Assembly: GCA_007571305.1 (NCBI GenBank)
Contig: RKRR01000107.1
Location: 5,638 to 69,637, forward strand
Direction of reading: 5' to 3'
From: Candidatus Poribacteria bacterium
GTDB taxonomy: Bacteria > Poribacteria > WGA-4E > WGA-3G
DNA: 64,000 nucleotides
The stretch's first letter is position 1, and every line of letters begins with the position of its first letter. This document shows, in pieces, positions 5,986-41,042 of this stretch. A model generated the notes under the pieces. The model made no database searches, had not been told where the DNA came from, and saw only the letters and a list, made by a program, of their open reading frames with translations. Position numbers and translations under genes: made by a program.

Positions 5986-7254
5986 TTAATTCTCGGTCCG
6001 GAGTGCGTCAATAGGTGAAAGACGCGCCGCCCGCATCGCAGGGTAGACACCAAATCCCACACCCATGACAATCGAAAAAATAACAGAAGTCAATATCCAT
6101 GGAAGAGAAAGGACGACGGGCCACGCGTCCACAACAGGCACAATCCGCACCGCAAGCCATGCCATCCCATGTGCTGCGCCCCAACCGCCCGCGATGCCGA
6201 GCACCCCGCCGCATAAGCAGAGGCAGATCGCTTCTGTCAAGAACTGATAGAAGACATCAATCCGTTTCGCACCTACTGATTTCCGTAAGCCTATCTCGCG
6301 TGTTTTCTCACCGACAGAAACGAGACAGATATTCATAATGCCGATGCCGCTGACGAACAGCGAGAAACCCGCAATGCTGCCCAAAGTAATCTTTATCACC
6401 CTTTGGATGTGCTCCAGCCGCCCGAATGTCAGTTTCGGGATATAGTACTCAATAAAGTCGTCCTGCCCGCGGTGTCTTTTACGTAGGATATCCTTAACAG
6501 AAGCGATGATACTGTTAATATTGGCACCCTTTTGGAAAAAGACAATCATGTAATCAACGTAGCGAATGCCTGAAAGTCGTTGTTGATCTGTTGTCAATGG
6601 AACACAGACGGCATCATCCAAGGAATACTCCCAAGTGAGGCTACGACCCTTTGGTTTCATCACACCCACGACACGCATTCGTACTGGCTTTTGTCGCCAA
6701 TAACGATAATATCGGACCTTTATTTCCTCCCCGAGTGGGACTGCCTCTCCAAACAACTCAATGGCAACTTCTGCCCCCAAGACGCAGACCTGTGCTGCGG
6801 TCTCTATATCGTTTTCGGTGAGAAATCTACCGGTTTGTAGTTCCCAATTCATGCCGCGGGCATAGTTCGCAGTAACTGCTTCTATGAGTGCTCTAGCTTG
6901 GGTTCCATGTCGAGTGGTAACAAAGTTTTCAAAAGATTCGTGATTGGGTAAGACATATAAAACCTCGGGGCATTCCGCCTCAATAGCATAAGCGTCTTCA
7001 AGAGTATATCGTTCGGTAGTTCGCCGGAGCCGCCCGCGTTTGAGAATAGATGTGCGAGTGTAGAGTGTAAACTGATTTGCCCCACCAAGTTTTTCGATAT
7101 CTTCAGCGATGATTTTTTTTCCACCGTCGCCAATAGCAATCATGCACAGCACCCCCGCAACCCCGATAAAGATGCCGAGAATGGACAATCCCGCACGGAG
7201 TCTATTTTGCACAAGCGGCTTTACACCTGTCGTGATAGCCTCAAGAATATTCAT
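5986..7254 (-). CDS. MacB/FtsX-family ABC transporter permease
   Basis: NRLRAGLSILGIFIGVAGV, large periplasmic domain, SLFVSGIGIMNICLVSV, REIGLRKSVGA, GVYPAMRAARLSPIDALRTE. Confidence 0.9.
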   Translation of the reverse strand: MNILEAITTGVKPLVQNRLRAGLSILGIFIGVAGVLCMIAIGDGGKKIIAEDIEKLGGANQFTLYTRTSILKRGRLRRTTERYTLEDAYAIEAECPEVLYVLPNHESFENFVTTRHGTQARALIEAVTANYARGMNWELQTGRFLTENDIETAAQVCVLGAEVAIELFGEAVPLGEEIKVRYYRYWRQKPVRMRVVGVMKPKGRSLTWEYSLDDAVCVPLTTDQQRLSGIRYVDYMIVFFQKGANINSIIASVKDILRKRHRGQDDFIEYYIPKLTFGRLEHIQRVIKITLGSIAGFSLFVSGIGIMNICLVSVGEKTREIGLRKSVGAKRIDVFYQFLTEAICLCLCGGVLGIAGGWGAAHGMAWLAVRIVPVVDAWPVVLSLPWILTSVIFSIVMGVGFGVYPAMRAARLSPIDALRTEN

Positions 7255-8960
7255 CAGCTGACTTGTGGTCCTATAACCTTCAGAAACTCTTTATCATCCT
7301 TTACATCCGAAAATTCAGGGGTCTCAAGGAAAGTCGGGTAGTATGTATCCCAATTATCCGGTTGCGCCACATAGTAGTCCCGAGCGACCTTTAAATGATG
7401 TAGAGTCTTTTCTCGATCCTTCTCAGAAGCCCAGATGCTTGCAGCAAGTTGAAGGTGGGCATAATCGTTGTTATTTTCCAAATCAATGGCGACTTTCAGA
7501 AACCTTTTCGCCTCATCATACTTCCTCAACCACACCAGACAACAACCGACATCGTGAGCAAGCCACATAAGATGACCGAGATCTACAGGTTGCCCTGTCT
7601 CCCGTTTTTTTAATTCTCCTTCCATATACGCCCTCACTTCTGTAAAGATTTGATCGAAACGCTCCCAATCCTCCTGTCCACCATAGATGAGAAGTAGATT
7701 TTCTTTCGCAATTAACCAGAATTGAGAATAGTGATCCGAACCGGGTTCATTGTTAGCACGTTCCAACTTTTCTATTTCAAGGAGTGCTTCATCGAATCTG
7801 TCGTTGCATCGTAAGACATCTACTCCTGTTTGCAGGAACTCGCAGCGACTGTAGCAACTCACGTCAGGATTGTCTAAGCGTTCAGAGGCTTCATGATAAA
7901 GTTGAATCCAGTCATCAATACGACCTTCCGCCGCCCAACATCCATGCACATGCAAATTGGAAGCAGCCTCTAACACGTATTTATCTGACAAGTGCTGGCA
8001 CGTCCAACGGTAAAACTGAGAGTGTTCCTCAATCGCTTCTCGATGTCTTCCCAGAAAAGCGAGGCTATAAATCAATCCATCGTGCGCCCAGAAACGCTCG
8101 GTATTATCTGAAGTCTCATCCATATACTTACGGAGTAGAGGGATTCGCTTTTCCATTCCGAATTTGTCCATATACAGGTATATCTCATCCACAGCGAGAT
8201 GCATTAATTCGGGTGTGGTTTTACCCTTAAGTGCATCTTCAATCTCATTGCAGGCTTTTGTAAGAATATCCGATCTTGATGCGGGATCAGATTTCACATC
8301 TTCCATGAATGCATTGAACTTCGTGCGAATTTCTTCTAATTGTGTCATGATGTTCTCCTTCACGTTATCTGGTAATTCTAAGGAACCAAAGAATTCTGGA
8401 TTTAAGAGTTCTTGATCTGCTTGCAGACGCTTTCGAGCTCGCTGAAGTCGACTCGTAATTGTATTCACCGACACTCCCATGACTCTGGCGATCTCTCTCG
8501 TTGACATTTCGTCGAGATAGAAGAGTGTTACAACGGAGCGTTCATTCGCCGGTAGTTTTTCCAAAAGTCTTCTCACAAGTTCATGGTAATGCTCGATTCT
8601 CTCTGTCATCCGCTGTTCCGATATATGGTGGACATAAGAGGATTTCTCAATTTCTTTAGTAGGTGTGTCCTCCAAGGATTGCGTCACAGACCTTTGGCTT
8701 CGCATCCAATCAATACATAGCCGATTTGCGATGACATGGAGCCATCCAGCAAATTGATTGGGATTCTTGAGTGTCGGAAGTTTATTGTATGCCCTCAGGA
8801 AGGTGTCTTGCATGATCTCTTCCGCATGGTGAAAATCTTGGATCTTCCGCCATGCCAGGGCATGAATGCTTTTCTGGTACTTTTCGACTAAGATACCAAA
8901 CGCAGTGTCGTCACCCGATAAAAACTTGCCAATCAATCGAGCATCGTCTTCTCTTTCCAC
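7254..8960 (-). CDS. ECF sigma factor fused to a ~364-aa C-terminal helical-repeat (TPR-like) domain
   Basis: Sigma2 (AEEIMQDTFLRAY...FAGWLHVIANRLCIDW) and sigma4 (EIARVMGVSVNTITSRLQRARKRL) in residues 1-185; C-terminal helical repeats (YDEAKRFLKVAIDLENNNDYAHLQLA); GTG start with AGGAGG RBS; stop overlaps the permease ATG (TGATG). Confidence 0.85.
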   Translation of the reverse strand: MEREDDARLIGKFLSGDDTAFGILVEKYQKSIHALAWRKIQDFHHAEEIMQDTFLRAYNKLPTLKNPNQFAGWLHVIANRLCIDWMRSQRSVTQSLEDTPTKEIEKSSYVHHISEQRMTERIEHYHELVRRLLEKLPANERSVVTLFYLDEMSTREIARVMGVSVNTITSRLQRARKRLQADQELLNPEFFGSLELPDNVKENIMTQLEEIRTKFNAFMEDVKSDPASRSDILTKACNEIEDALKGKTTPELMHLAVDEIYLYMDKFGMEKRIPLLRKYMDETSDNTERFWAHDGLIYSLAFLGRHREAIEEHSQFYRWTCQHLSDKYVLEAASNLHVHGCWAAEGRIDDWIQLYHEASERLDNPDVSCYSRCEFLQTGVDVLRCNDRFDEALLEIEKLERANNEPGSDHYSQFWLIAKENLLLIYGGQEDWERFDQIFTEVRAYMEGELKKRETGQPVDLGHLMWLAHDVGCCLVWLRKYDEAKRFLKVAIDLENNNDYAHLQLAASIWASEKDREKTLHHLKVARDYYVAQPDNWDTYYPTFLETPEFSDVKDDKEFLKVIGPQVS

Positions 8961-9342
8961 GAAACTTCCTCCTAATGAACAGGTTGGATCGTGCTTGTTT
9001 TTGCCAAATGCGAAACTTTGTCAAATGAAGCAGCCCAGGGCGATTCGTACTCTCTGTTATTAAAGACGAAAGTTTAATGAAAAAACGTGCATCGTGATGA
9101 AAAAATGGGAAAACCTGAATTGTTTGGAAATTATTTTGTGGGGACAATTCTGGACGCACGATAAATCACCGATTGCGCAAATCTTGGACTGCTAACAGAT
9201 AGAGTTACCGCTGAAAGGCATTTTCGGGGGAATTGAAGTATGTGTAGGGAAGACTTATCTCTACAAGTCAGAACGCTTGCGCCCCTTACATCAATCAGAA
9301 ACGGTCACAAATGCTTCTTTGGGAACTGAGACAGTAGAAATA

Positions 9343-11316
9343 CTAAAAGGCGCGGATGACCTTAGCAACTAAACGCTGTTTGAATTCCGAGGCATTAGGA
9401 TCTCCCAGGATAATGAAAAAGTCAGTGCCGGCATATCCGGATCGGCGCAATGCGAAGTAGATATTAATGCCCTCTGCTTGCCAGATTAATCGGCTACCGA
9501 GACTTAATGCGGGACTGAAATCGTACGTGAGGGTTAAAATCTGTTGGTACCGCCTCTCAAAGTGCCACTGAATTTGGGAAGTCAATCCGACAGTGAAACC
9601 GTGGGTGCGGAGATTCAGATTCCCGCTGACGCGATGAATCCGCTCCCCTGCTTGCTCGCCACCTGTGTATCCAACATTGACATTATTAAACCGGTCTGAG
9701 GCGCGGAGACCCAAATTAACAGAGAAAAGGCTATCGGTGAATTCCTCAAATCTGCCACCTCTCCAGTCAGCCCCAAGTGCGATGTCACTATGGGTTAAAA
9801 GGTATGTGGCGATTGTAAACGTGCGACGAAAAAGTTCGCCTTCAGCGGTGTTAGAAGCATGCCCATAAAAGAAAATATTGGCACGCCGAAAAATTCCATC
9901 CCGCCATTCGTTATCAATTCGGACACGCATGGAAGCACCATGATATCCGGTGAAGGGGTGGTAGCCGAGTCTGTTCACAAAATCGGGATCGAAGAACAAT
10001 CCCGACACCGCTGCTTGAAGTAGCGAACCTTCGTAAAGGAACGTGGCAGCCCCTGCCCTACCCTCCGATTCACCCTCCCAAGTTTGACCGAAATGTGAGG
10101 ACACCGAAAACTTACCGTGGCGTATATTCCCTGAAAGATAACCGACATTGTTGGCTTTGGTATCACGGTGATGATGAGACAAAAACGCCGCGCTGATATT
10201 GGATGTCGCCGTGAGCGATTGTGAAGCTCGGAAGATAACATTCTGGTTGTTTCCATGATACGTGCTTAAGGTACCGACTGAGGTATTCTTGCCAATTTTT
10301 CCAAAGGCTTTCAATCCTGCATCCATATCCTCTACCCGCCGCGAGTGAAAAAAGTTCCGAAATTGATAGAGATTACCACCTTCTGAAAAGAACGGACGGC
10401 GATCCGGTACGTAGCGTTCACCGTAGGAGAAATCGATGCCTTCCACGGCTTGTTCAACATTATCAAAATCGGGATTCGCTGTTCCAATGAGTCGCAACTG
10501 TGGTGTAACTTCATAGCGGATATCCGCGCCTGCGCGGGCAGTGTATTCTCTCTCGTCGGCCTCCGCTTCCCGAATACCACCAATCAGATAGGGTAAAAAT
10601 TTGAGTTCACGTTTCCGAGGCGGTGGTAGCACATCAATCCAATGTCCATCGTTCTCTCGAAATTCATTCACCCCTAAATTACACCACCACGAACGTTCCC
10701 CAGTGCGCTGCTGTTCTCTGTCAATATTAATCCCCATCCGAACTGGTTTGGTTGTATCAGGATAATCCAACATCTGCCACGGTATCTCCATCTCTACAAT
10801 CCAGCCGTCTTCCACAATCTGTGCTGCAGCCTTCCATAGTCCGATCCACTCACTTTTTTCTGCACGTCCAGTAGCGAGATGTGCGTATTTCGTCCCGATT
10901 GGATTTACGATAAAGAAATTTCTGTCCGAAAACTGGTGTGTATGAAACGGATCAAGACTAAACGAAACCCAGTCCTCTCCGCGAATTCGGGTCTGATCTT
11001 TCGTTTGGCGCGCAACAATTTTATCGGGCATATCATCGTAAAGATGAAGTCCAACGTAAATAGCTTTGTCCGTATAAACAAGGCGGCCCATAGACTGATT
11101 TTTTGCTGGTTTTTCGGTGCGCTGATCAGTGAAACCGCTGGCTTGGGGTGCGTCTTGCCAGCAAACATCGTTGAGGACACCGTCAATGACAGGCGTTTGA
11201 TCTGTTTTGACGGCGCGGAGTTCTTTCTGCACAGTCTGTCCGTTTTCGGCTACCGACATTTGTAAGTCTGTGATTAAGGTGAACAATAGTGTGATAAGCA
11301 ATACTACCCTAGACAT
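9343..11316 (-). CDS. CBM9-like plus DUF5916 outer-membrane/secreted protein
   Basis: Signal peptide; PVIDGVLNDVCWQDAP, YVGLHLYD, GWIVEMEIPW, TANPDFDNVE, DRRPFFSEG motifs; beta-strand-rich C-terminus ending in F. Confidence 0.7.
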   Translation of the reverse strand: MSRVVLLITLLFTLITDLQMSVAENGQTVQKELRAVKTDQTPVIDGVLNDVCWQDAPQASGFTDQRTEKPAKNQSMGRLVYTDKAIYVGLHLYDDMPDKIVARQTKDQTRIRGEDWVSFSLDPFHTHQFSDRNFFIVNPIGTKYAHLATGRAEKSEWIGLWKAAAQIVEDGWIVEMEIPWQMLDYPDTTKPVRMGINIDREQQRTGERSWWCNLGVNEFRENDGHWIDVLPPPRKRELKFLPYLIGGIREAEADEREYTARAGADIRYEVTPQLRLIGTANPDFDNVEQAVEGIDFSYGERYVPDRRPFFSEGGNLYQFRNFFHSRRVEDMDAGLKAFGKIGKNTSVGTLSTYHGNNQNVIFRASQSLTATSNISAAFLSHHHRDTKANNVGYLSGNIRHGKFSVSSHFGQTWEGESEGRAGAATFLYEGSLLQAAVSGLFFDPDFVNRLGYHPFTGYHGASMRVRIDNEWRDGIFRRANIFFYGHASNTAEGELFRRTFTIATYLLTHSDIALGADWRGGRFEEFTDSLFSVNLGLRASDRFNNVNVGYTGGEQAGERIHRVSGNLNLRTHGFTVGLTSQIQWHFERRYQQILTLTYDFSPALSLGSRLIWQAEGINIYFALRRSGYAGTDFFIILGDPNASEFKQRLVAKVIRAF

Positions 11317-11376
11317 GATTCTCCCTCATTGTCCCGCGAGCTTCTACAGGTTCGCTCTTATAGATTCACTTGTATA

Positions 11377-11535
11377 ACCCAAATTGCTATGGACACAATT
11401 TTAGAAATTCATCTGCTCTTTTTTATTGAAAAACGTTCGGGATCCGCAGTATTTCGTAGCGTAGGAAACCTTTGGTCGCCTACGTCCGAAGCTGCACAAC
11501 CGAACAGGTGATGCGACAAAGGCGGCAACTTGGGT
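11377..11535. mobile_element. MITE family C (IS982-like ends), copy 1
   Basis: Ends ACCCAAATTG / CAACTTGGGT, flanked by TTGTATA / TTGTATG; full-length homology with 53926-54082. Confidence 0.75.
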
Positions 11536-11624
11536 TTGTATGGTAGAGTCCCTTAAGACGGAAAAAGGATAGCAAAAAATTCAAGAGAGTTATTGTTTAT
11601 CAGTTAAAGAGGTACTCTGTTTAA

Positions 11625-12845
11625 TCAAGGGATCTTTTGATGGAATTCCGCGATGCTTTTTTCAACACTTCGGAGTAGCATCTCATCGCTGAGGTGGAAC
11701 GCCTCGCGTATTGTGATCGGTAGTTTCTGTTTCGCCTCTATCGAATCGAGCAACTGCTGATTTTGCACGACAACGACAGAGTCAATACTTCCTCGAAGTT
11801 CCTGCAGACCACGTTTTGCTTGCTCCGCGCGACGTTGACCTTCAAAGTTGAATGGACACGTCACAACGCCGACTGCGAAAGCACCCTGTTCTTGAGCGAG
11901 AGATGCAATCAGAGGTGCGGCACCAGTCCCTGTTCCACCACCCATACCAGCGATAACAAAGACAATATCCGCATTCGCAACGATAGTGTAGAGTGTTTCT
12001 CTGTCCTCCTCAGCGGCTTCTCTACCTACCTCTGGATTCGCGCCCGAAAACCCTGGAGTGGTGTTTGAGCCGATCTGTACCCGTGTTGCTTCACGGTGCT
12101 TGTCTAGTGCTTGCATGTTTATATCCACGGCATAAAATTCAACACCTGTCAAACCGGCTGCAATCATGTGATTGACGGCGTTACCGCCCGCTCCACCGAC
12201 ACCAATAACCTTGATTTTGGTTTGGATGTTTTTGGATTCTTCTCGTTTGGATGACATAGGTCTCCCTTTTTTAGGCTCGACACCGAACTTCTTACGCAGG
12301 AGTTCACGTGTCTGTCTTAATTTCGTCTTGATTGTGCCTATCGCCAATCCGAGTTCAGCGTGGATCTCATTGATATTCCACAATTCCAAATAGTATAGGA
12401 CCGCAACGCGGCGCATTTTATCTGGGAGATGATGTATTGCTTCTCTCACCTCTTCGTAGAGTTCTGTTTCACGAAAGCGTGCGACAGCACCTTGATCAAT
12501 ATAATCCGTCAGATCTGCATAACTGGCAGAAATTTCATTCCCCAAACGCCCAACAGAAGCATAGTACCTCTTGCAAGCGTTATAAGCAATGCGATGTAGC
12601 CATCCACCGAAACTCTCAACGCTCTGTAGTCCGCCGATATTTTCCCAGACGGCTCTCCAAACGTCCATAAGGATTTCTTCAGCATCGCGGGGTTGTCTCG
12701 AATTTGCGATAATCACTTTCCAAATACGTGGACTATAACGCGACATCAGTTCCGCAAACGCCAGTTCATCACCGGCTTGTACAAGTTCGATGAGTTCTTC
12801 ATCTGTTAGAATGGTGTCCGTTGATAGATCGTATCGCATAAACAT
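11625..12845 (-). CDS. ECF sigma factor fused to an FtsZ N-terminal GTP-binding domain
   Basis: Residues 1-190: sigma2 (DAEEILMDVWRAVW...FGGWLHRIAYN) and sigma4 (EIHAELGLAIGTIKTKLRQTRELL). Residues 197-406: KIKVIGVGGAGGNAV, GANPEVG, AGMGGGTGTGAAP, PFNFEGQRR. Ends before the T7 loop (NVDFAD). Confidence 0.92.
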   Translation of the reverse strand: MFMRYDLSTDTILTDEELIELVQAGDELAFAELMSRYSPRIWKVIIANSRQPRDAEEILMDVWRAVWENIGGLQSVESFGGWLHRIAYNACKRYYASVGRLGNEISASYADLTDYIDQGAVARFRETELYEEVREAIHHLPDKMRRVAVLYYLELWNINEIHAELGLAIGTIKTKLRQTRELLRKKFGVEPKKGRPMSSKREESKNIQTKIKVIGVGGAGGNAVNHMIAAGLTGVEFYAVDINMQALDKHREATRVQIGSNTTPGFSGANPEVGREAAEEDRETLYTIVANADIVFVIAGMGGGTGTGAAPLIASLAQEQGAFAVGVVTCPFNFEGQRRAEQAKRGLQELRGSIDSVVVVQNQQLLDSIEAKQKLPITIREAFHLSDEMLLRSVEKSIAEFHQKIP

Positions 12846-12928
12846 TTCTCAATTAGATTTTAACCTTAAAGAGTAGACTTTTTCGGAGAGCGGTTTAAAA
12901 AAATCAAATTAACGACTTGTGCTAATTA

Positions 12929-13086
12929 ACCCAAGTTGCCACTTTGTAGCATAGGAAACCGTTGATCTCCTGTGCATCTTCATGCCGAAAATCACACGGA
13001 ATACGTCAAACTTTTGGAAAAAATGGAGGATCCTCACTGAAAACGGGTGTTCGTGTATCTGAAATCCTATAGGTAGCAACTTGGGT
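12929..13086. mobile_element. MITE family C, copy 2
   Basis: Perfect ends ACCCAAGTTG / CAACTTGGGT with 6-bp direct repeat TAATTA on both sides; lies between the two sigma-fusion genes. Confidence 0.8.
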
Positions 13087-13216
13087 TAATTAGTTTTGAG
13101 ACAGGATTTCAACTCGGTCTGAGACGTGTTAACCTCCTCGGAATACTTCCGAAACCCTCCTGGAGATGAATCAAGCGTTTTTGATGTATCAGGGTCAGGA
13201 ACATCGTTTCGCTTTG

Positions 13217-14938
13217 CTAAAGTTTCTTCGGCATGACGAAATAGACCTGCCCTTCTTCACCCATCGGTTTAATAAAAATAGGGTCCAATTCACCCGAGAA
13301 CTCCAGAGACAGAGCCTCCGTTTCAACGCGCTCGATTGCGTCTGTCAGCAACCGTGGATCAAAACCGATACGGATACTTCCAGTGCTGGATTCCACCTCT
13401 AACGTCTCCTGCTTTATATCCGGTTCAGTCGTCTCCGGAGAAATCCGAATTTGTTGCGCATCTATCTCCATACAAATAGTAGGATTTTCCGGATTTGTGA
13501 GCGGCGAGACCCTGCGTATTGCGTCCAAAAAACGCTCTCTCGGCACAACCGTCCGCCCTTTAAAAGATTCTGGAAAGAGTTTCTCATACTTTGGATATTC
13601 ACCGTCTACCAATCGCGTCGTTAATGTAGCGTGATCATCGGCAAAAAGGATTTCATCCTCAACGAGCGAAATCTTTACTTCTGGAGAACTGGCAAAATTT
13701 CGCTCAATTTCTCTGACAGCCTTGAGCGGGATGATGAATCCATTGCTCTCACCAGCTAGCCTGAAGGGTTCGCAATGCGCGATAGCAATTTGTTTGCCGT
13801 CGCATCCAACGACCTCAGTTCTGTCCTCAAAAAGTTTAAAATAAAGCCCGTTTAGAAATCGACGACGATTTTCCTCTCTGGACGCAGCAAATTCAGTCTT
13901 GTAGAGAACAGACCGCAGGGATTCTCCGTTAATAGTGAATGCCTCTTCGCCAACAGAGAGGAGTTCAGGGAACTCTTTATTGGGAAGTCCAATAATTTTG
14001 TAAACGTCTTCCTGACCTGTGATTTCAACCCTATCGCTCGTCGCCGCGAAGTCTATCGCTTTCTCAGCGGGCCACGTTTTAATGATATCCTCCAATTTTT
14101 GGAAAGAAACCACGATGGCTCCTTCCTCTTTGACTGTCCCTTCAACCTTCATTCTGATGCCGATTTCCGTGTCCGTCGCCATACACTCAATTGTGCTCCC
14201 TTCCGCATGGATGAGAACATTTGCGGTAATAGGTGAGGTATCCTGTCCACTTACGATACTCTGTAGCACTTGTAAGGAGTGCCAAAACTCATCTCTCTCT
14301 AAAGTTAATTTCATTCCAAAACCTCCGTTCAAATGATTTTGAGACCGATGTTCCCCTTCAATGGTGAGGTCTAACGCTTCTTGAATCATGAATTCATACT
14401 TCTTTAGTTGTTGCCGCGCACGGCGAAGACGACTTTTAATTGTATTTTCTGATACGCCTAAAAGACGACTTATCTCTGCGTACGTCATGCCTTCAAGGTA
14501 GTGAAACGTGATGACTGTTCGATTGCCTTCCTTCAACTTCGCAAGCAACTTTTCTACCAAGTCGCGTCGCGCGTCAGCAAAAGTTTTCGCGTATTCCTCC
14601 GCGATATATCGGGAATACGCCTCTGTTGCTACTTCGGTGCTGTCAGTGCCTTCCAACGGTTCGATGTGTCGATGGTTCTTTCGGAGCCAAGCGATACAGA
14701 GGCGATCCGTAATGACATAAAGCCATCTTGGAAACCGCGTCGGATCTTCCAAGGTTTCCAATTTCTGATACACCTGTAGGAAGGTTTCCTGCGTAATATC
14801 TTCGGCAATATGAAAATCCCGAATTTTCCGCCACGCGCGTGCGTGAACCTGTTTCTGGTATTTTCTCACCAAGTGCTCAAAGGCAATTGCGTCACCCGCA
14901 AGGATGCGTTGAATCAACACAATATCATCGTTTCTCAC
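13217..14938 (-). CDS. ECF sigma factor fused to a full-length DNA polymerase III beta clamp (DnaN paralog)
   Basis: Residues 1-190: sigma2 (IAEDITQETFLQVYQKL...WLYVITDRLC) and sigma4 (EISRLLGVSENTIKSRLRRARQQL). Residues 209-573 (365 aa): MKLTLER..., MATDTE, EFPEL, FAAS...RRFLNGLYF, DGKQIA, IIPLKAVRE, RLVDGEYPKYEKLFP, IGFDPRLL, FVMPKKL. Confidence 0.92.
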   Translation of the reverse strand: MRNDDIVLIQRILAGDAIAFEHLVRKYQKQVHARAWRKIRDFHIAEDITQETFLQVYQKLETLEDPTRFPRWLYVITDRLCIAWLRKNHRHIEPLEGTDSTEVATEAYSRYIAEEYAKTFADARRDLVEKLLAKLKEGNRTVITFHYLEGMTYAEISRLLGVSENTIKSRLRRARQQLKKYEFMIQEALDLTIEGEHRSQNHLNGGFGMKLTLERDEFWHSLQVLQSIVSGQDTSPITANVLIHAEGSTIECMATDTEIGIRMKVEGTVKEEGAIVVSFQKLEDIIKTWPAEKAIDFAATSDRVEITGQEDVYKIIGLPNKEFPELLSVGEEAFTINGESLRSVLYKTEFAASREENRRRFLNGLYFKLFEDRTEVVGCDGKQIAIAHCEPFRLAGESNGFIIPLKAVREIERNFASSPEVKISLVEDEILFADDHATLTTRLVDGEYPKYEKLFPESFKGRTVVPRERFLDAIRRVSPLTNPENPTICMEIDAQQIRISPETTEPDIKQETLEVESSTGSIRIGFDPRLLTDAIERVETEALSLEFSGELDPIFIKPMGEEGQVYFVMPKKL

Positions 14939-15348
14939 CGGACATCTCCCGAAAGGTCATTTTATCAAGGGAACTTATACAATTTCCATATCTCGTGAAA
15001 TAGGTGTGCCTATAAATCGCGAAGAGGCACCCTATCAATTGACTTCACCATAGTGACGCGAACTGAAAAAAAAAAGGGTGCATAATTCTGCATACTTGCT
15101 GTGTCGTGCCACTTTAGTTTCTTGTCTCAAAGGGGATTCATCGCTGAACAAGATGGATTTAGTGCCGACTGAAGTTTGGCTGAGGATGCCGTCCCAGTTC
15201 CATATCTGATGGGCTTCGCGAATGCCACACACGCATTCGCCGAGATGCCCTCCTCTATGAAACGAGAAGCCTACTATCGCTTGTGTGGGATAGCATGGAC
15301 TACCCAGCGACCCCACACAAGTACAGTGCGCGTTAGATAGATCATTCA

Positions 15349-16188
15349 TTAATCGGTTTCCTCGGATACAGGTTTGTCAGCCTCGTCTGCATTCAAGTAT
15401 CTGAGTGGACTTTCAATGCTGTATTCCCCTGATTCCTCAAGAAACTGCTGAATCAGATAGACATGCCCAGCACCGATAATTAATAGGATCCGGTCATTCG
15501 GAGATTCGGTGATACGCGTGAGGTTCACAAAAATCTGGAGATTCCAGGTATACCACAAATGCCCAACCCAATTGGCCCCTGGGTACTGATCGCCGAGTCC
15601 AACACGCGCAATTCGCAAGTACTGCTGATGATCAGCGAGTCTACCTTCAGGCTGATTGAGTCGTCTGTACATATCGGTTATCGGTTCGTATTTCTCAGGT
15701 TCAACCCAGATTGTGCCATCTGCATCCTGCGTAATTTTCCCTTCAGCCATAGGGGGTTGCCCCATGAGGTGCTCCTGATTATGTGCCTTTGCGAACTTGT
15801 CAGGGTCTACCAAATCCCAGTCAAAGTTCTCTGGAAAGAAACCATCGGGTTCCTGACGGTAATTTCGGAAATAATCAACACAGTAGAGTTTAGGGAGTCC
15901 CATCTGTTTTGCCAATCGAAATCCGATTTGGTCGCCTTCCCCACGTTTGAGTTGGTATGTGCCTTCCAGATAGCCATGATAGTTTGCGTTAATCTTAGCA
16001 TCAAACCTTTCATCTGCCTCAAGAGCTACCTTAGTGGGACGAAACGCTTTCAGCTGCGTCACCAGTTGTTCAATCTCGCGTTGGCGTTTGGGCGCGAGGA
16101 CATCATCCATTTTTGTATTGAATACATTGATTCCTGGATTTGCCAGATGGTCACTGCCGAGAATCATAAGTATCGGTTTTTGTGGCAT
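15349..16188 (-). CDS. DUF5694-like protein (stand-alone copy, putative TraB/Tiki-type hydrolase)
   Basis: MILGSDHLANPG, FRPTKVALE, QIGFRLAKQMG, WYTWNLQIFVNL, RILLIIGAGHV. ATG at 16188 follows AGGAG; the track start at 16278 overlaps the upstream gene. Confidence 0.7.
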   Translation of the reverse strand: MPQKPILMILGSDHLANPGINVFNTKMDDVLAPKRQREIEQLVTQLKAFRPTKVALEADERFDAKINANYHGYLEGTYQLKRGEGDQIGFRLAKQMGLPKLYCVDYFRNYRQEPDGFFPENFDWDLVDPDKFAKAHNQEHLMGQPPMAEGKITQDADGTIWVEPEKYEPITDMYRRLNQPEGRLADHQQYLRIARVGLGDQYPGANWVGHLWYTWNLQIFVNLTRITESPNDRILLIIGAGHVYLIQQFLEESGEYSIESPLRYLNADEADKPVSEETD

Positions 16189-16222
16189 TTGCGTAGTATC
16201 TCCTGTAGATAGATATGTCTGA

Positions 16223-17647
16223 TCATTGCTTAGGCTGTTCGGTATCCTCGGATGAAAGTGTCTCTGCCTCATCCGCATTCAAGTACTTCAGTGGACTCTC
16301 AACGATGTAGTCTCCCGATTCCTCAAGAAACTGCTGAATCAGATAGACATGCCCAGCGCCAATAATCAGTAGAATGCGATCATCGGTGGACTCAGTGATA
16401 CGCGTGAGGTTCACAAAATTCTTGAGATTATGTGCATACCACCAATGTGAAACCCAATTGGCACCTGGATATTGGTCTTTGAGCCCAATGCGTGCGGTTC
16501 GCAGATACGATTGATGTTGTACCCTACCCCATTCAGGCTGATTGAGCCGGATATACATGTCAATTAGGGGTTCATATTCCTCAGGTTCAACCCAGACTGT
16601 GCCATCTACGTCCGCCCGAACTCTCACTCCGCTTGAGGAGATGCTCCATAAGAGATGCTCCTGATTATGAGTCTCCGCAAACGTGGCGTAGTCCAGTAGA
16701 CTCTGATCAATTTGATCTAAAATCGGTCTCTGTTCCGGCCAATCAGCAACACAGTAAAGTTTCGGATGTCCCAGCTGTTTCGCTAACCGAAAGCCGATTT
16801 GGTTGTGCGAAATCCGTTTGAGTTCGTAATCGCCCTCCAAGTAGTCTTGATAATTGGCGTTAATCTCAGCATCAGATTTTTTGTCTGCATAGACGGCTAT
16901 CTTAGTGGGACGAAACGCTTTCAGCTGCGTCACCAGTTGTTCCATTTCGCGTTGGCGTTTGGGCGCGAGGACATCATCCATTTTTGTATTGAATACATTG
17001 ATTCCTGGATTTGTGAAGAGGTCACCACCCAAAATCATGACTGTCGCTTTTTGTCGTGTGTCATCTCTTTTCCACTGCCCCTTCAGCTTGTCGCCGAAAT
17101 CGATGTCCACCGCACCGAAATTGCTTAGATTTCCGAGCAATTCCTCAATGCGTTCTGGCTCGATCTCTCCGTAGATGTTGGCAAAGGTGGCTTCTCCAGA
17201 TCCTTTAGAGATGATGATAGCGAAAATCCCGTAGACCTTCTTTTCGTCAAACAGTAGATTGATCTCCACCGTTTCACTCTTTTCCTTAATCCTGACGAGG
17301 ACTTCCCACTGATCCTTTTTCAGTTTCTCCTTGAAATAACTAACTAATTTCCTTTCATCAATCCTTGCCTTATCGTAGGTGCGGACATAGATGCCATCTA
17401 ACATTTGGATCAGTTCGGCGACTTCGGGTTGATTGCTCACCGACTTGGTCACCAGATTGATGAGTTTCGCGGTCAGGTTAACTTCGACTTTTGCTTCAAT
17501 GGTCTCCGGAAAATCAAAGAGGATAAGCCCTTTTCTCTCTGTTTTATCCGAACTTTCTTGTTGTGCTGGTACTGTATTAATCAGTATAAACCATACAGGT
17601 AAAACAACTGATATCAATAATAGGATGGACTGTTTTTGCATTTTCAT
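16223..17647 (-). CDS. Secreted DUF4252-DUF5694 fusion protein
   Basis: Signal peptide; DUF4252-like block (KVEVNLTAKLI...LDGIYVRTY...WEVLVRIKE...FANIYGEI); C-terminal half is a near-duplicate of 15349-16188. Confidence 0.7.
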   Translation of the reverse strand: MKMQKQSILLLISVVLPVWFILINTVPAQQESSDKTERKGLILFDFPETIEAKVEVNLTAKLINLVTKSVSNQPEVAELIQMLDGIYVRTYDKARIDERKLVSYFKEKLKKDQWEVLVRIKEKSETVEINLLFDEKKVYGIFAIIISKGSGEATFANIYGEIEPERIEELLGNLSNFGAVDIDFGDKLKGQWKRDDTRQKATVMILGGDLFTNPGINVFNTKMDDVLAPKRQREMEQLVTQLKAFRPTKIAVYADKKSDAEINANYQDYLEGDYELKRISHNQIGFRLAKQLGHPKLYCVADWPEQRPILDQIDQSLLDYATFAETHNQEHLLWSISSSGVRVRADVDGTVWVEPEEYEPLIDMYIRLNQPEWGRVQHQSYLRTARIGLKDQYPGANWVSHWWYAHNLKNFVNLTRITESTDDRILLIIGAGHVYLIQQFLEESGDYIVESPLKYLNADEAETLSSEDTEQPKQ

Positions 17648-17659
17648 GTGTTCTACTCC

Positions 17660-18346
17660 TTAATTTGAATTGTCGTTTGTTTCTGTTTCTGACTTTGGGT
17701 CGTCCTCCAGTTCTCCCGAACTCACCGCTACTTTCAACCACTGGGGTGCATGCCCCTTTACCCAACCGCGAACATTTTCAAGAATCTCCACCTCAGAATT
17801 AGATTCCAGAAACTGTCCAAATAGAACACCGAGTTTCTGAAAGTCCATCTCTCCATAGATGTTCACGAAACTCGTTTCTTTGTCATTAGTGAACATGAGG
17901 AAAATGCCATGCACTATGCCCTGTTCCTCGGCATATAGCAGACTGAGGTCGAATTTGTCCTCGATTTTGACGAGACGTTCCCACTTTTTCGCTTCAAAGA
18001 TCTCTTGATAGTGGTCAATTACGTTCTTGAGATCTTCTGTTTCTTTATTATATGTGCGGATGGCAGCACCGTTCAGCATTTCGATATGCTCTGTCAAAAC
18101 GACCGACTTGTCTCCAGCAAGTTTCAGATGACTACCAGAAGTCATAAAGAGTTTGAAGAAGTCCCTATCCAAGTTAAATGCCATTTTAGGAAGCGGGGCA
18201 TCCGGCACATCCATCTCTATTTTGCCAAACATTACCTCTACTTCTGCTACGTTGTTCGTCTGGGCGAACCCATTACTGAAGGCGCAGCAGGCTGCGAAAA
18301 AAACGACACCCAGTAAAAGAAAAGTGAGGGGGAATCTTTCCATCAA
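17660..18346 (-). CDS. Secreted DUF4252-family protein
   Basis: Signal peptide; MAFNLDRDFFKL, LNGAAIRTY, WERLVKIE, FVNIYGEMD. Confidence 0.65.
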   Translation of the reverse strand: MMERFPLTFLLLGVVFFAACCAFSNGFAQTNNVAEVEVMFGKIEMDVPDAPLPKMAFNLDRDFFKLFMTSGSHLKLAGDKSVVLTEHIEMLNGAAIRTYNKETEDLKNVIDHYQEIFEAKKWERLVKIEDKFDLSLLYAEEQGIVHGIFLMFTNDKETSFVNIYGEMDFQKLGVLFGQFLESNSEVEILENVRGWVKGHAPQWLKVAVSSGELEDDPKSETETNDNSN

Positions 18347-19020
18347 TTTTCTCCTTTTTGGTGGGAGTGTTGACTCTTTTCAGTGTCAGGAACATTTTCG
18401 GGTAACCGGCTAAGGCTCTCCAAACTTCGCCGAATTGCTAATGAAATATTTTCTTTTTGTTTCAACACGCTGCGGGACGCGTTTTCAATCTGAACAAAGG
18501 GACGACCTGAAACTTCATCAATTCGTACATCAGGAAGCTTTTCATTGACAACGGCACCTGTTCTCTCTACCGCGTAGTTTAACTGACTGAGCGCATAGTT
18601 GAGGTCACGGGAGGCTTGCGTTATCCTCACATACTGCTGATACTGGTAGGTACCAAACAAAGCAACACCAATGAGAACTACCAAGGCACCTGCGCGAGTA
18701 AGTCGTGAAGTGATGTAATCCGAGAATGTGAACAACTGGAATATCCGTTGCAGCCATCTCGGTCCCCTGTTGGGATGCGTGCGAACATAAGCCGAAACAG
18801 CGTTGAAAATTTCTGGTGGTGGTTCCGGCATCGGAAGATCGTGTAATGCTTCATCTATTGCTTGTGCGAAGCGAACTTCATTTTGACAAGCCGAACAGAA
18901 CGCAATATGTGCCTTTACTGTCGCATGAATATCTGCATCCAATTCATCGGCGAGATACGCCTCTAAATTGTCCTGAATCTCCATACAAGATGAATCTCGG
19001 TGAAGCGGAAGATCCTTCAT
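18343..19020 (-). CDS. Zinc-binding (ZAS, zf-HC2) transmembrane anti-sigma factor
   Basis: C-x...LEAYLADEL...HIAFCSAC (HxxxCxxC), one TM helix (GALVVLIGVALFGTY); overlaps the sigma stop (ATGA). Confidence 0.85.
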   Translation of the reverse strand: MKDLPLHRDSSCMEIQDNLEAYLADELDADIHATVKAHIAFCSACQNEVRFAQAIDEALHDLPMPEPPPEIFNAVSAYVRTHPNRGPRWLQRIFQLFTFSDYITSRLTRAGALVVLIGVALFGTYQYQQYVRITQASRDLNYALSQLNYAVERTGAVVNEKLPDVRIDEVSGRPFVQIENASRSVLKQKENISLAIRRSLESLSRLPENVPDTEKSQHSHQKGEN

Positions 19021-19550
19021 CTGTTATTCCTCCAATAGGGACGTAGTAACTCCCGCAACCTTTTACGGGCACGGAATACAGTAGATTTTACGGTGCCTTC
19101 GGGTTGCTCTAAAACCTCAGCAATCTCCTTGAAACTCATGCTATTCATCTCCCGCATAACTATCACCGCTCGCATGTCCGGCGGCAATTTACGAATGGCA
19201 CACTGCACTGACTCCTTGAGTTCTTGCTGAAGTACAATCTCCTCTGGCGATGGCTGTGATTGATTGGAGTGTGTGTGCATTAAGGTTTCAAGCTCCGCAT
19301 CATCTCCTTCTGCCAAAGGCACCTGAAATTTGTTCCGCTTTAGCAGATTGAAACAGAGATTCTGCACACATTTTAGCAACCATGAACGGGCTGTCTTCGG
19401 ACGCAATTTGGTGCGGTGTTCCCATCCCTTAATAAATGTCTCCTGCGTTATATCCTCTGCATCTTCTCGATTTCCGAGTAGATAAAGAGCATGTTGGTAG
19501 ACTCGAGCCTTGTGTTCATGAACAAGCTCAAGAAATTCATCTTCAGTCAT
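19017..19550 (-). CDS. ECF RNA polymerase sigma factor (stand-alone)
   Basis: DAEDITQETFIKGW...WLLKCVQNLCFN and SFKEIAEVLEQPEGTVKSTVFRARKRL. Confidence 0.92.
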   Translation of the reverse strand: MTEDEFLELVHEHKARVYQHALYLLGNREDAEDITQETFIKGWEHRTKLRPKTARSWLLKCVQNLCFNLLKRNKFQVPLAEGDDAELETLMHTHSNQSQPSPEEIVLQQELKESVQCAIRKLPPDMRAVIVMREMNSMSFKEIAEVLEQPEGTVKSTVFRARKRLRELLRPYWRNNR

Positions 19551-19663
19551 ATTGCATCTCCGCGCATCTTGAGGTTGTTGTTACTACAAACGAGTTTCAA
19601 AATAGTTGCACTATTTTTATTTAAGATGCTCGGAGGTAGTTTAGGCAGGCCTAACTGAACGTG

Positions 19664-38710: not shown

Positions 38711-40188
38711 AGCTTCATGAACTGCTCCGCGGAATTCACATTACCAAGAGTTCTGGATCGCTGGATGTTGATATTACCGGTGTTGTCAGTGACAATCGGA
38801 AAGTCGAAGTTGGTAATGCTTTCGTCTGTTATCAAGGCATCACCGTGGATATCCACAACTTCATTCCAGATGCACTTCAAAAAGGAGCGGTAGTTGTCAT
38901 TGGTGAAAAACCAATAACAACTTTAGAGACACAAGGAAAACTGATTACCTATGTGCAAGTTCCTTGTGGGCGCCGGGCGATGTCCTTGATTGCCGCCAAT
39001 TGGCATGGAAACCCTGCAAAACGTCTTAAACTCATCGGTATTACAGGCACGAACGGTAAAACTTCAACCGCACACCTCATACATGCCATACTCAAGGCAA
39101 GTGGGCGAAAAACAGCACTCATCGGAACAGTCGGACACCGGTACACGAACACCCAAGGCGAAGAAGAAATACTCCCTGCTGCTCTCACAACTCCCGATGC
39201 GTTTGCACTTCACGCTCTTTTCAAGCAGTTCACTGAAGACAACGTAGAATATGTTACGATGGAAACCTCCTCACAAGGTTTAGCACTGCAGCGATTAGCA
39301 GGGCTCACCTTCGATACCGCCGTTTTTACCAACTTCACCCAGGACCATCTGGATTACCATCAGACGATGGAAGCGTATCTAAGGGCGAAACTGATGTTGT
39401 TCGAGCAACTCGATAAGAAAGGAGTTGCGATTTTAAACAGCGACTCACCGGTAGCAGAGCGCATTGTCGACGCTTGCTCTGGTTCGCGGTCTTTGGTGTA
39501 CGGACGTGGTGAAAAAGCGGATCTATATGCCGAGGATATTGATTTTTCTCATCATCGCTTGGCATTTACAGCGGTTACACCAGAGGGGCGAATCCCTACT
39601 ACGTTACGACTACTCGGAGAATATAACCTTTACAACGCCCTTGCTGCCCTTGCTGTTGGACTCCGTTACGATTGTCCAATTTCAGCAATTCAGGAGGGCC
39701 TTGCCCGTACCATAGTTCCCGGTCGGTTTGAACTTATTGATCAAGGACAAGATTTTGCTGTCATCGTTGACTATGCGCATACTCCTGATGGCTTAGGAAA
39801 TGTACTGACTGCCGCCAAACGCGTCGCTGAACGTAATTTGATTTGTGTTTTCGGATGCGGTGGCGATAGGGATAACGGAAAGCGTCCTAAGATGGGAAAT
39901 ATCTCCACCCAAATTGCGGATTATACCGTGATTACTTCTGACAATCCGCGCACCGAAGACCCTGATGAAATCATCACACAAATTGTGTCAAATTTACCAC
40001 ATGACACCAAATATATGTGTATTCCAGAGAGACGAGACGCTATTCACCACGCAATCGCGATGGCAAAATCCGGTGATGTTGTTGTAATCGCCGGGAAAGG
40101 ACACGAGGATTACCAAGAAATTAATGGCAAAAGATTTCCATTTGACGATAGGATCGTGGCTTCAGATTTTTTAACGATGCGCGTCTAA
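38707..40188 (+). CDS. murE: UDP-MurNAc-dipeptide--diamino acid ligase
   Basis: GITGTNGKTST, METSSQGL, NFTQDHLDYH, VDYAHTPDG, GCGGDRD, DNPR (meso-DAP-type motif), AGKGHE. Confidence 0.96.
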   Translation: MKLHELLRGIHITKSSGSLDVDITGVVSDNRKVEVGNAFVCYQGITVDIHNFIPDALQKGAVVVIGEKPITTLETQGKLITYVQVPCGRRAMSLIAANWHGNPAKRLKLIGITGTNGKTSTAHLIHAILKASGRKTALIGTVGHRYTNTQGEEEILPAALTTPDAFALHALFKQFTEDNVEYVTMETSSQGLALQRLAGLTFDTAVFTNFTQDHLDYHQTMEAYLRAKLMLFEQLDKKGVAILNSDSPVAERIVDACSGSRSLVYGRGEKADLYAEDIDFSHHRLAFTAVTPEGRIPTTLRLLGEYNLYNALAALAVGLRYDCPISAIQEGLARTIVPGRFELIDQGQDFAVIVDYAHTPDGLGNVLTAAKRVAERNLICVFGCGGDRDNGKRPKMGNISTQIADYTVITSDNPRTEDPDEIITQIVSNLPHDTKYMCIPERRDAIHHAIAMAKSGDVVVIAGKGHEDYQEINGKRFPFDDRIVASDFLTMRV

Positions 40189-40209
40189 ACTGCCGCTGCA
40201 TTAAAATAA

Positions 40210-41040: not shown

Positions 41041-41042
41041 TA

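Follow-up and report, generated by a model that had tools for sequence, protein, structure and literature searches.

Extracytoplasmic function sigma factors fused to FtsZ and beta-clamp paralogs in a Poribacteria gene island

Sigma factors that carry their own regulatory domain are well known: the extracytoplasmic function (ECF) classification 2.0 lists 19 groups in which a C-terminal extension replaces the anti-sigma factor, including SnoaL-like domains in ECF41, ECF56, ECF294 and ECF295, TPR in ECF42, a Cys-rich segment in ECF238, multiple transmembrane (TM) segments in ECF263 and DUF1835 in ECF264 (PMC7826278). Here we analyze a 64-kb stretch of DNA (hereafter, the window; contig RKRR01000107.1 of assembly GCA_007571305.1) from a member of the Poribacteria, an uncultured, mostly sponge-associated phylum. 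Its minus strand holds, at 7254-19550, four ECF sigma genes, each one unbroken open reading frame (ORF). Three of them encode fusions: sigma-FtsZ(N), which ends in the GTPase half of an FtsZ paralog; sigma-DnaN, which ends in a whole beta-clamp paralog; and a sigma-TPR-like protein with a helical-repeat extension. Like the described extension groups, these proteins have a sigma2 plus sigma4 core, no cognate anti-sigma factor, an extension of more than 50 aa after sigma4 (200-390 aa here) and likely positive autoregulation; unlike them, they have as partners an FtsZ GTPase half and a whole clamp paralog. An earlier, sequence-only reading of this DNA had known of no ECF group with a replisome or divisome partner, and none was found in the main texts of the ECF literature searched; FtsZ or clamp extensions go unmentioned in the main texts of the ECF classification papers, whose supplements were not searched. 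We are nearly certain of the descriptive core of this account, namely that the locus is an island of Poribacteria-specific, separately autoregulated ECF sigma genes, three of which carry a fused cytoplasmic domain in place of an anti-sigma factor.

To our knowledge, direct links from a sliding clamp to RNA polymerase are known solely in phages T4 and Mu. In T4 (the sigma-like gp55, with gp33 and the gp45 clamp) and in Mu (MuC with the host beta clamp), as in the arrangement described here, a promoter-specificity factor is physically attached to a sliding clamp, and in the phages this couples transcription to replication (PMC7892883, PMC2988020, PMC12867686). The phage tether, however, is a short clamp-binding peptide motif that holds a working replisome clamp non-covalently, whereas sigma-DnaN is a cellular ECF sigma factor joined covalently to the N-terminus of a dedicated clamp paralog without Arg24. 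No phage record carrying a sigma-clamp fusion of this kind was found, nor did the ECF, FtsZ, DnaN and Poribacteria literature searched describe any cellular sigma factor with a covalently attached clamp paralog or FtsZ half-domain. ECF sigma factors with fused extensions are thus a known kind of protein and phage clamp-activated transcription is a known process; the fusion to FtsZ or to a clamp is apparently undescribed.

The membership of all four proteins in the ECF class is straightforward. Sigma2 and sigma4 Pfam domains lie above threshold in each, the NCBIfam sigma70-ECF model TIGR02937 scores 66-102 bits (cutoff, 42.9), and matches in the PDB include SigW, RpoE and SigH. No further sigma ORF was detected in the window with a hidden Markov model built from the four sigma domains. 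A hydropathy scan found no TM segment in the three fusions, and no anti-sigma gene adjoins them: the sole zf-HC2 anti-sigma gene of the island pairs with the fourth, classical sigma gene, whose stop codon its start overlaps. The sequence-only reading had described four co-oriented ECF sigma genes within 12.3 kb, with FtsZ and DnaN fusions that lack both a TM helix and an adjoining anti-sigma gene, and all of this was borne out.

What exactly is fused to the sigma domain in sigma-FtsZ(N)? The FtsZ part aligns to residues 12-200 of Staphylococcus aureus FtsZ, ending within helix H7, and it matches the NCBIfam ftsZ model TIGR00065 at model positions 7-200 of 353 only (224 bits; cutoff, 295). The T7 loop, the C-terminal domain (FtsZ_C) and the C-terminal peptide that binds FtsA/ZipA (the membrane tether) are all absent. 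Because the protein stops at the equivalent of residue ~202 of canonical FtsZ, the fused module is an FtsZ half-domain and not an FtsZ. Over that half it remains close to the housekeeping protein: BLASTP aligns it to aa 5-202 of the window's own FtsZ at 60% identity and 80% similarity, N-terminal peptide included, and its identity to canonical FtsZ is 60-66% within the Poribacteria (polymer-face loops included) vs. 47-53% in other phyla. Across 77 sequences the T1 motif GGAGGNA, the T4 motif GGGTG(T/A)G, NPE, PFxFEGxRR and the F/D of H7 are invariant, T5 and T6 being among the conserved motifs, and the truncation point, just before the T7 loop, is identical in all members of the family. Given these invariant pocket motifs and the shared end point, we predict that the module can bind GTP and present the "top" longitudinal face of FtsZ. 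An AlphaFold2 (AF2) monomer model of the whole protein (pLDDT 67.5, pTM 0.45) consists of two independent domains connected by a disordered linker at 190-206, with no confident packing between the sigma and FtsZ(N) domains.

The parent paralog of FtsZ(N) is the window's canonical FtsZ, which has the Pfam domains Tubulin and FtsZ_C and stands at the end of a dcw (division and cell wall) cluster. In relatives the canonical protein is 430-441 aa long, has a C-terminal DWEIPAFLRV peptide and is encoded in a MurD-FtsW-MurG-MurC-FtsA-FtsZ cluster; the orthologue P0431 has the same dcw context. The dcw cluster lies 17-41 kb from the sigma island, and the two are ~30 kb apart also in genome OX638316.1, a proximity that fits an origin of FtsZ(N) by local duplication.

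The clamp part of sigma-DnaN, in turn, is complete. It contains PF00712, PF02767 and PF02768, matches the dnaN equivalog model TIGR00663 with 229 bits (cutoff, 138) over model positions 1-365 of 367, and covers residues 1-366 of the Escherichia coli beta clamp at 24% identity. Most of the peptide-binding cleft is retained (L155, G174, L177, P242, M362 and P363, with R246K and V247L), as is the C-terminal MPxxL. The closest standalone clamp, P0243 (373 aa, encoded on a Poribacteria chromosome), is 53% identical to the fused DnaN and sits beside a second clamp gene; Arg24 is kept in both. Tandem standalone dnaN genes on a Poribacteria chromosome (L081:8001-10867; two genes, 373 and 368 aa, 73% identical) do not adjoin dnaA; near them are a TnpB fragment and a gene for the type I restriction protein HsdR. 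That the FtsZ and DnaN parts are paralogs of housekeeping genes, as the sequence-only reading had it, was confirmed by the 60% identity to the window's FtsZ and 53% to a standalone DnaN, and sequence comparison indicates that ftsZ and dnaN of the phylum itself were their source.

The third fusion is related to the second through its sigma domain, which is 48% identical to that of sigma-DnaN. Its extension is ~2x the usual length of an ECF42 extension; an extension profile matches designed PPR and TPR solenoids and BBS4 in the PDB, and Pfam TPR_14 and TPR_2 matches, all below threshold, occur in 15 of 41 orthologues. The gene had originally been called sigma-TPR. The helical-repeat character of the extension stands, and the TPR label, given sub-threshold Pfam matches, is better softened to TPR-like.

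Table 1. Features of the sigma island and its surroundings (positions are those of the window)
Feature	Positions	Strand	Length	Details
Sigma-FtsZ(N)	11625-12845	-	406 aa	Pfam: r2 33-98, r4 131-185, Tubulin/FtsZ GTPase (PF00091) 210-369 (E 5.7e-42)
Sigma-FtsZ(N), sigma part	12282-12845	-		aa 1-188
Sigma-FtsZ(N), linker		-		aa 189-209; flexible
Sigma-FtsZ(N), FtsZ part	11628-12218	-		aa 210-406; FtsZ GTPase through helix H7
Sigma-DnaN	13217-14938	-	573 aa	Pfam: r2 23-90, r4_2 126-178, DNA_pol3_beta domains 1, 2 and 3 at 209-571
Sigma-DnaN, sigma part	14384-14938	-		aa 1-185
Sigma-DnaN, linker		-		aa 186-208
Sigma-DnaN, clamp part	13220-14314	-		aa 209-573; three-domain beta-clamp paralog
Sigma + helical-repeat (TPR-like) extension	7254-8960	-	568 aa	Pfam: Sigma70_r2 24-90, r4_2 127-179; 380-aa extension
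Classical ECF sigma	19017-19550	-	177 aa	Pfam Sigma70_r2 + r4_2; NCBIfam ECF models
zf-HC2 anti-sigma	18343-19020	-		Pfam PF13490; one TM helix, aa 107-125 (hydropathy scan)
Type B promoter of sigma-FtsZ(N)	12866-12902	-		TTTTTTTAAACCG-N17-CTCTTTA; ~55-57 nt upstream of ATG
Type A promoter of sigma-DnaN	15053-15087	-		AGAATTATGCAC-N17-CGCGTCACTAT; ~144 nt upstream of start codon; 16/21 orthologues
Type A promoter of sigma-TPR-like gene	9063-9096	-		GATGCACGTTTT-N-CTTTCGTCTTTAAT
Type C promoter of classical sigma operon	19585-19610	-		GTGCAAC-N12-CGTTTGTAGTA; footprint in 15/20 orthologous upstream regions
MITE-like element	12922-13093		172 bp	21-nt terminal inverted repeats; within 371-bp spacer 12846-13216
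MacB/FtsX-type ABC permease	5986-7254	-		Pfam MacB_PCD, FtsX
Secreted DUF5916/CBM9 protein	9343-11316	-		Pfam, signal peptide; conserved downstream neighbour of sigma-FtsZ(N)
DUF5694 envelope gene	15349-16278	-		Pfam, signal/TM segments
DUF4252+DUF5694 envelope gene	16223-17647	-		Pfam, signal/TM segments
DUF4252 envelope gene	17660-18346	-		Pfam, signal/TM segments
dcw cluster	36920-55424	+		FtsI, MurE, MurF, MraY, MurD, FtsW, MurG?, MurC, FtsA, FtsZ
Canonical FtsZ	54138-55424	+	428 aa	Pfam Tubulin + FtsZ_C; end of dcw cluster

Are the fusions conserved, and in which organisms? Each is represented by at least 120 full-length clusters at 90% identity, with matches that are 73-86% identical and 400-419 aa long for sigma-FtsZ(N), and 67-86% identical and 568-591 aa long for sigma-DnaN. 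Where named in their sources, these relatives are called "sigma-70 family RNA polymerase sigma factor" or "DNA polymerase III beta subunit," names that acknowledge a single domain only. A scan of GTDB with one genome per species returned 126 relatives of sigma-FtsZ(N), of which 80 loci were kept. All 75 loci whose titles name a taxon are from Poribacteria, and the remaining five bear just the title "uncultured bacterium." Among the loci kept are closed long-read chromosomes of 5-6.6 Mb, metagenome-assembled genomes from sponges and the single-cell genome WGA-3G. Sigma-FtsZ(N) occurs in ~65 of the 80 species genomes, throughout the set, and sigma-DnaN in a subclade of ~21 genomes, the clade closest to the window. 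Junctions between the sigma domain and its partner are continuous in 66 short-form ORFs (that is, sigma-FtsZ(N)) and in 21 sigma-DnaN ORFs from the 80 loci. When 1.84 billion representative sequences were searched with phmmer, sigma-DnaN formed one 50% cluster, and no other full-length sigma-plus-clamp architecture was found among them but for one odd protein of 469 aa. A viral origin was considered and rejected: no relatives turned up in IMG/VR, and no phage record covers 80% or more of either fusion.

Selection was measured as the median Nei-Gojobori ratio of nonsynonymous to synonymous substitution rates (dN/dS) over species pairs. The ratios are 0.14, 0.21 and 0.29 for the sigma, linker and DnaN parts of sigma-DnaN; 0.15, 0.59 and 0.17 for the sigma, linker and FtsZ(N) parts of sigma-FtsZ(N); and 0.16 and 0.23 for the sigma domain and extension of the sigma-TPR-like protein. 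Because dN/dS lies at 0.14-0.29 on the sigma and the fused domain alike, both halves of the fusions are maintained by purifying selection. The sequence-only reading had allowed that the fusions might be singletons, evolve under relaxed selection or be unsupported by reads. They are not singletons but recur in many Poribacteria species genomes; selection on them is not relaxed; and identical junctions appear in dozens of independent assemblies, including the closed chromosomes and the single-cell genome. Variant copies were also seen: a tandem duplicate of sigma-FtsZ(N) (L036:5850-7139 and 9953-11287), an extra ORF with FtsZ(N) only (L038:11554-12192), and a frameshifted sigma-DnaN (L008:1925-3690).

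Do these genes look like working, promoter-specific sigma factors? We located promoters by phylogenetic footprinting of orthologous upstream regions and scanned the window and 1.54 Mb of related loci with regular expressions and position weight matrices (PWMs). Footprints specific to each class of sigma gene are conserved over 14-66 orthologous upstream regions. The type A form, ATGCAC-N15-17-CGTC, precedes both the sigma-DnaN and the sigma-TPR-like gene; type B precedes 66 of 66 short-form FtsZ-fusion orthologues and 13 of 14 orthologues of a long form described below; and type C, besides preceding the classical sigma operon, is found before DUF5916 and DUF5694 genes in other loci, the DUF5916 case in 10 of them. 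Each motif occurs once in the window, before its own gene, with PWM scores of 33-36 vs. at most 12.6 at any other site; the sigma-DnaN promoter scores 36.4 against 12.6 for the next best site in the window, and the sigma-FtsZ(N) promoter 36.4 against 1.9. In the 1.54 Mb of Poribacteria loci, all 71 type B sites (71/71) lie upstream of type-B sigma genes. Because these are conserved ECF-type promoters of the genes' own class, the proteins are most likely autoregulated, working sigma factors. A metagenome-wide scan for type B promoters added little: among the matches listed, 1 of 120 was real and the rest were almost all due to chance. The leader of sigma-DnaN is long (~110 nt) and in most species begins with a palindrome, TCACTATAGTGA, that overlaps the -10 element and may be an operator or an RNA stem. 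An ORF at 15035-15349 (minus strand, 104 aa) was considered as a small regulator and rejected: it overlaps the promoter of sigma-DnaN, other loci contain no homologue, and the ORF is unlikely to be a gene.

Three lineages of sigma domain can be told apart, matching the promoter classes: type A (sigma-DnaN and sigma-TPR-like), type B (the short and long FtsZ fusions) and type C (classical). More than 100 clusters (at 50% identity) share with the window proteins just the type-A sigma domain, 50-63% identical, and in 95 of 101 relatives examined a single TM helix follows right after sigma4, at about aa 220-240. Beyond the helix these TM-type relatives (P0258-P0385), a large expansion, continue in long extracytoplasmic parts; those sampled include BNR/Sortilin and WD40 propellers and a transglutaminase core, others are unknown domains, and whole proteins reach 1279 aa. 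One such gene lies on a Poribacteria chromosome. The one TM-type member examined in this respect, L065:17706-20903 (minus strand), shares the juxta-sigma4 motif LPxxxxENIM with the sigma-TPR-like proteins. Membrane-anchored ECF fusions, under the name "ECF01-Gob," were reportedly described in Planctomycetes by Jogler et al. in 2012. The window proteins resemble the membrane-anchored propeller fusions in their type-A sigma domain, and those are laid out as sigma, a linker of ~30 aa, TM helix and sensor domain; they differ in lacking the TM helix, the anchor and periplasmic sensor being replaced by cytoplasmic DnaN or helical repeats. Because type-A relatives are mostly of this sigma-TM-extracytoplasmic kind, the cytoplasmic DnaN and helical-repeat versions are derivatives of a membrane-tethered sigma family. 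The sequence-only reading had also asked whether the fusions might be random captures, and here the outcome is mixed: sigma-DnaN is conserved, yet its sigma lineage took up many other C-terminal partners.

Paralogs of FtsZ, DnaN and DnaE also turn up in further combinations, with ECF sigma domains and with one another. The long form, of ~1430 aa, joins a type-B sigma domain to a full FtsZ (Tubulin plus FtsZ_C) and to the N-terminal 880 aa of DNA polymerase III alpha (DnaE), cut after the helix-hairpin-helix (HhH) motif; its DnaE part matches the DnaE1 model NF004226 above cutoff (1036 bits, model positions 3-885 of 1146), with its PHP (HLHNHS) and catalytic (PDIDID) motifs preserved. The long form is carried by at least 14 species genomes, elsewhere in the chromosome (L064:9992-14299 on the plus strand, L065-L068, L071-L077, L079 and L080), with TatD, a permease and TnpB fragments as neighbours; a truncated copy is present at L069:9779-11791, and P0466 is similar. 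A split intein behind the truncated DnaE was rejected, for the ORF ends right after HhH, contains no intein segment and is not followed by the missing remainder of dnaE. The sigma domains of the short and long FtsZ fusions are related (59% identity), but the short form is not a simple truncation of the long one, as its FtsZ(N) is 60-66% identical to canonical FtsZ vs. 50% to long-form FtsZ.

A protein of 706 aa, P0247 (L082:8001-10121), fuses a complete DnaN (aa 1-386) to a complete FtsZ (Tubulin, 393-550; FtsZ_C, 610-706); its cluster has 18 members, some on contigs of Mb size, and a gene for a sigma54-dependent activator lies downstream. P0246 (L083:8001-9410) combines a type-B sigma domain, 57% identical to that of the FtsZ fusions, with a clamp lacking domain I, has a type B promoter and occupies the TatD/permease locus that elsewhere holds sigma-FtsZ-DnaE; it was found on a single contig at 3x coverage and may be a product of assembly or decay. 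In L060-L063, finally, an operon (L060:306-2465; also L062 and L063) encodes a classical-type sigma factor of 175 aa, a zf-HC2 anti-sigma factor of 138 aa and a divergent standalone DnaN of 389 aa, also without Arg24. The usual sigma/anti-sigma/DUF4252 block follows immediately downstream of it, in the clade without sigma-DnaN. This operon was rejected as the unfused ancestor of sigma-DnaN: its sigma is 53% identical to the classical sigma vs. 27% to that of sigma-DnaN, and its DnaN is just 26-29% identical to the fused clamp. DnaN paralogs are thus joined to three ECF lineages—type A in sigma-DnaN, type B in P0246 and type C in the operon of L060-L063—and FtsZ, DnaN and DnaE paralogs are fused to each other as well. 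The sigma-FtsZ-DnaE and DnaN-FtsZ proteins can be taken as Rosetta-stone hints of a connection between FtsZ and the replisome. Outside the phylum, in Arthrobacter phage Zucker (ON645346.1, genes 73-74; L206:1288-2760), a gene for a small, weakly sigma4-like protein with tandem helix-turn-helix motifs ends 6 nt before, and in frame with, the phage beta-clamp gene; Arthrobacter phages make up 48 of the 171 phage records matching the sigma-DnaN query, and the Zucker genes may offer another example of a clamp that is paired with a DNA-binding factor.

How might such fusions work? The mechanism we favor, tentatively and at somewhat less than an even chance, is that they are one-component sigma factors governed by what the fused paralog domain binds: that binding would set the availability of sigma to RNA polymerase or its position in the cell. 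The capping of FtsZ filaments has been discussed as a concept (PMC9897490), and the FtsZ GTPase site forms when subunits associate in the filament (PMC8936486). The GTP-loaded top face of FtsZ(N) would engage the T7 face of native FtsZ, whether of a monomer or at the end of a filament, after which no further extension would be possible. FtsZ(N) would thereby dock sigma onto the FtsZ pool in a GTP-dependent manner, capping filaments while docked, and this docking would couple sigma activity to division or GTP state, or division might be affected in turn. SulA binds the T7 face of FtsZ, and MciZ and MipZ are end-cappers; a fragment with the GTP face only should, by geometry, likewise bind the T7 face and block elongation, although those inhibitors are unrelated folds without a transcription domain and the putative capper here is an FtsZ half on a sigma factor. 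SpoIIE, bound to FtsZ at the polar septum of sporulating Bacillus cells, releases sigma-F. There, as proposed here, sigma activity is tied to the FtsZ ring, but through multi-protein partner-switching and a group-3 sigma factor, whereas here one polypeptide with an ECF sigma domain would suffice.

For sigma-DnaN, the clamp module would pair into a ring, either with another copy of itself or with native DnaN, or use its largely intact peptide cleft to bind clamp partners. Sigma would then be held on clamps that are loaded at replication forks or behind them, with clamp-tethered transcription in T4 and Mu as the nearest precedent, or alternatively be sequestered on clamps. Because the nearest sigma relatives are sigma-TM-periplasmic-sensor fusions, a logic common to the family is suggested, in which sigma would be tethered to a structure by its C-terminus and the membrane anchor would have been swapped for a clamp, the FtsZ pool or a helical-repeat scaffold. 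A more far-reaching reading, which we consider doubtful, is that paralogs of FtsZ, the beta clamp and polymerase III alpha form an interlinked module wired to ECF sigma factors as a one-component cell-cycle checkpoint, with single polypeptides that would couple promoter choice to the assembly state of the replisome and the Z ring.

Several observations weigh against such a link to division and replication. In the fused clamp the DNA-contacting Arg24 is replaced by Asp or Gln, His175/Arg176 are variable and the dimer-interface residue Ile272 is not conserved, because of which ring formation or DNA loading may be altered. Type-A sigma domains have been joined to many other, unrelated C-terminal partners, so DnaN is one conserved capture among many and not a unique invention, and the identity of a partner need not imply sensing of that partner's pathway. 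The genes next to the fusions are not cell-cycle genes but serve the envelope and ABC transport, as is typical of ordinary ECF stress regulons, and this, together with the loss of Arg24, calls for caution about the mechanism. Apart from the genes' own promoters, no targets of the fusions were found in the window, its dcw cluster included, or in the 1.54 Mb of related loci. Neither kind of scan lends support to control of the window's dcw cluster or ftsZ by sigma-FtsZ(N). As for structure, the AF2 monomer of sigma-DnaN, at pLDDT 49, is unusable as a model, probably because of a shallow alignment, and the AF2 runs, being of monomers only, give no interaction support for docking to native FtsZ or DnaN.

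Could the extensions simply regulate their own sigma domains? In the manner of ECF41, ECF42 and ECF56, each might fold back on sigma2/sigma4 or sense a small ligand, which would be GTP in the case of FtsZ(N) and a peptide or metabolite in that of the clamp cleft, without touching native FtsZ or the replisome, the paralog having been recruited as a convenient ligand-binding fold. The 19 extension groups that do without anti-sigma factors set the precedent (PMC7826278), the fusions likewise lack an anti-sigma factor and a TM helix, the GTP pocket does not vary, many different partners are found on one and the same sigma lineage, and the neighbours are ordinary envelope genes. We nonetheless rate this explanation as rather unlikely: AF2 shows no confident interdomain packing but a disordered linker (pTM 0.45), FtsZ(N) is still 60-66% identical to native FtsZ with its polymer-face loops, and fold convenience hardly suffices where DnaN has been recruited by three ECF lineages and fused to FtsZ, alongside the DnaE fusions. 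The output might instead be on division or replication rather than on transcription, with sigma serving as an RNA polymerase- or DNA-targeting handle for an FtsZ capper, clamp or polymerase; the protein would then be a division inhibitor akin to nucleoid occlusion, or a manager of encounters between transcription and replication. A module without a bottom face should by geometry end FtsZ filaments, given its truncation point and the known interface (PMC8936486), and in the long paralog sigma is linked to a full FtsZ plus a DnaE in which the PHP (HLHNHS) and catalytic (PDIDID) motifs are preserved. But tightly conserved promoters of the genes' own class are a hallmark of an autoregulated, promoter-specific sigma factor, and the DNA-recognition regions sigma2/sigma4 are under the strongest purifying selection, and we give the handle explanation little credence.

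We think it very unlikely, in turn, that the fused FtsZ, DnaN and DnaE are integrated decoys that mimic frequent targets of phage-encoded inhibitors, such that binding of an inhibitor would free sigma for a protective programme. The partners are all essential host machines (FtsZ, clamp, polymerase III alpha), and the paralogs keep binding surfaces such as the GTP face and clamp cleft while losing catalytic or structural completeness; against this, none of the island's genes is recognisable as a defence gene (no search of the PADLOC library was made), the neighbours are envelope and transport genes, and the DnaN-FtsZ fusions have no output domain. The lack of relatives in viral collections also stands on that side, though it does not bear directly on the idea. 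There remains artefact or decay, through mis-assembly, read-through of adjacent genes or neutral fusions nearing loss. A few broken copies exist (the L008 frameshift, the truncated L069 and P0466, and P0246 without clamp domain I at 3x coverage), but with identical junctions in dozens of independent assemblies, closed chromosomes and a single-cell genome among them, low dN/dS on both halves, and conserved end points and promoters, artefact is effectively excluded.

The surroundings of the four genes are conserved too. The island is chromosomal; the window also encodes ATP synthase subunit a, tyrS, a class II ribonucleotide reductase and the dcw cluster. Core synteny across loci comprises an alcohol-dehydrogenase-like (ADH) gene, the sigma/anti-sigma/DUF4252/DUF5694 block, sigma-FtsZ(N), the DUF5916 gene, one or two sigma-TPR-like genes and MacB, and in some loci MacB, sigma-DnaN and two ABC-2 permease genes stand between the DUF5694 block and sigma-FtsZ(N). 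The order of the three envelope genes downstream of the sigma/anti-sigma pair is kept across Poribacteria loci. The arrangement of sigma-TPR-like followed by MacB recurs in many loci, and the permease is probably co-transcribed with the sigma-TPR-like gene, as its start overlaps that gene's stop codon.

The FtsZ and DnaN fusions adjoin each other in the window, as the sequence-only reading had noted, with a 371-bp spacer between them. In most relatives two genes for ABC-2 family permeases (~3.3 kb; e.g., L001:6700-9871) lie between sigma-DnaN and sigma-FtsZ(N); these were lost in the window's lineage, and an element resembling a miniature inverted-repeat transposable element (MITE) is in their place. 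Its inverted repeats (12922-12942 and 13073-13093) are 95% complementary. One further half-site, with 3 mismatches, occurs in the window at 54069-54089, and none was found in the related loci. The earlier label "MITE" is thus plausible and partly shown, there being one extra half-site.

What do these fusions mean for sigma factor biology? They reveal that C-terminal extensions of ECF sigma factors can come from core replisome and divisome proteins, and that one ECF lineage swaps its membrane anchor for cytoplasmic scaffolds. Current annotation hides sigma-FtsZ(N) and sigma-DnaN behind the names "sigma-70 family sigma factor" or "DNA polymerase III beta subunit," and their small size (406 and 573 aa), along with known promoters, makes the fusions amenable to testing. 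What is known of signalling from the cell cycle to transcription concerns mainly cascades of several steps (e.g., DnaA/CtrA, SpoIIE-sigma-F and SOS-SulA). If the coupling to replication or division is real, these proteins would be the first cellular example of a direct link from replication and division to a sigma factor, a regulatory logic new for cells; on the checkpoint reading they would also be a cellular counterpart of phage clamp-activated transcription.

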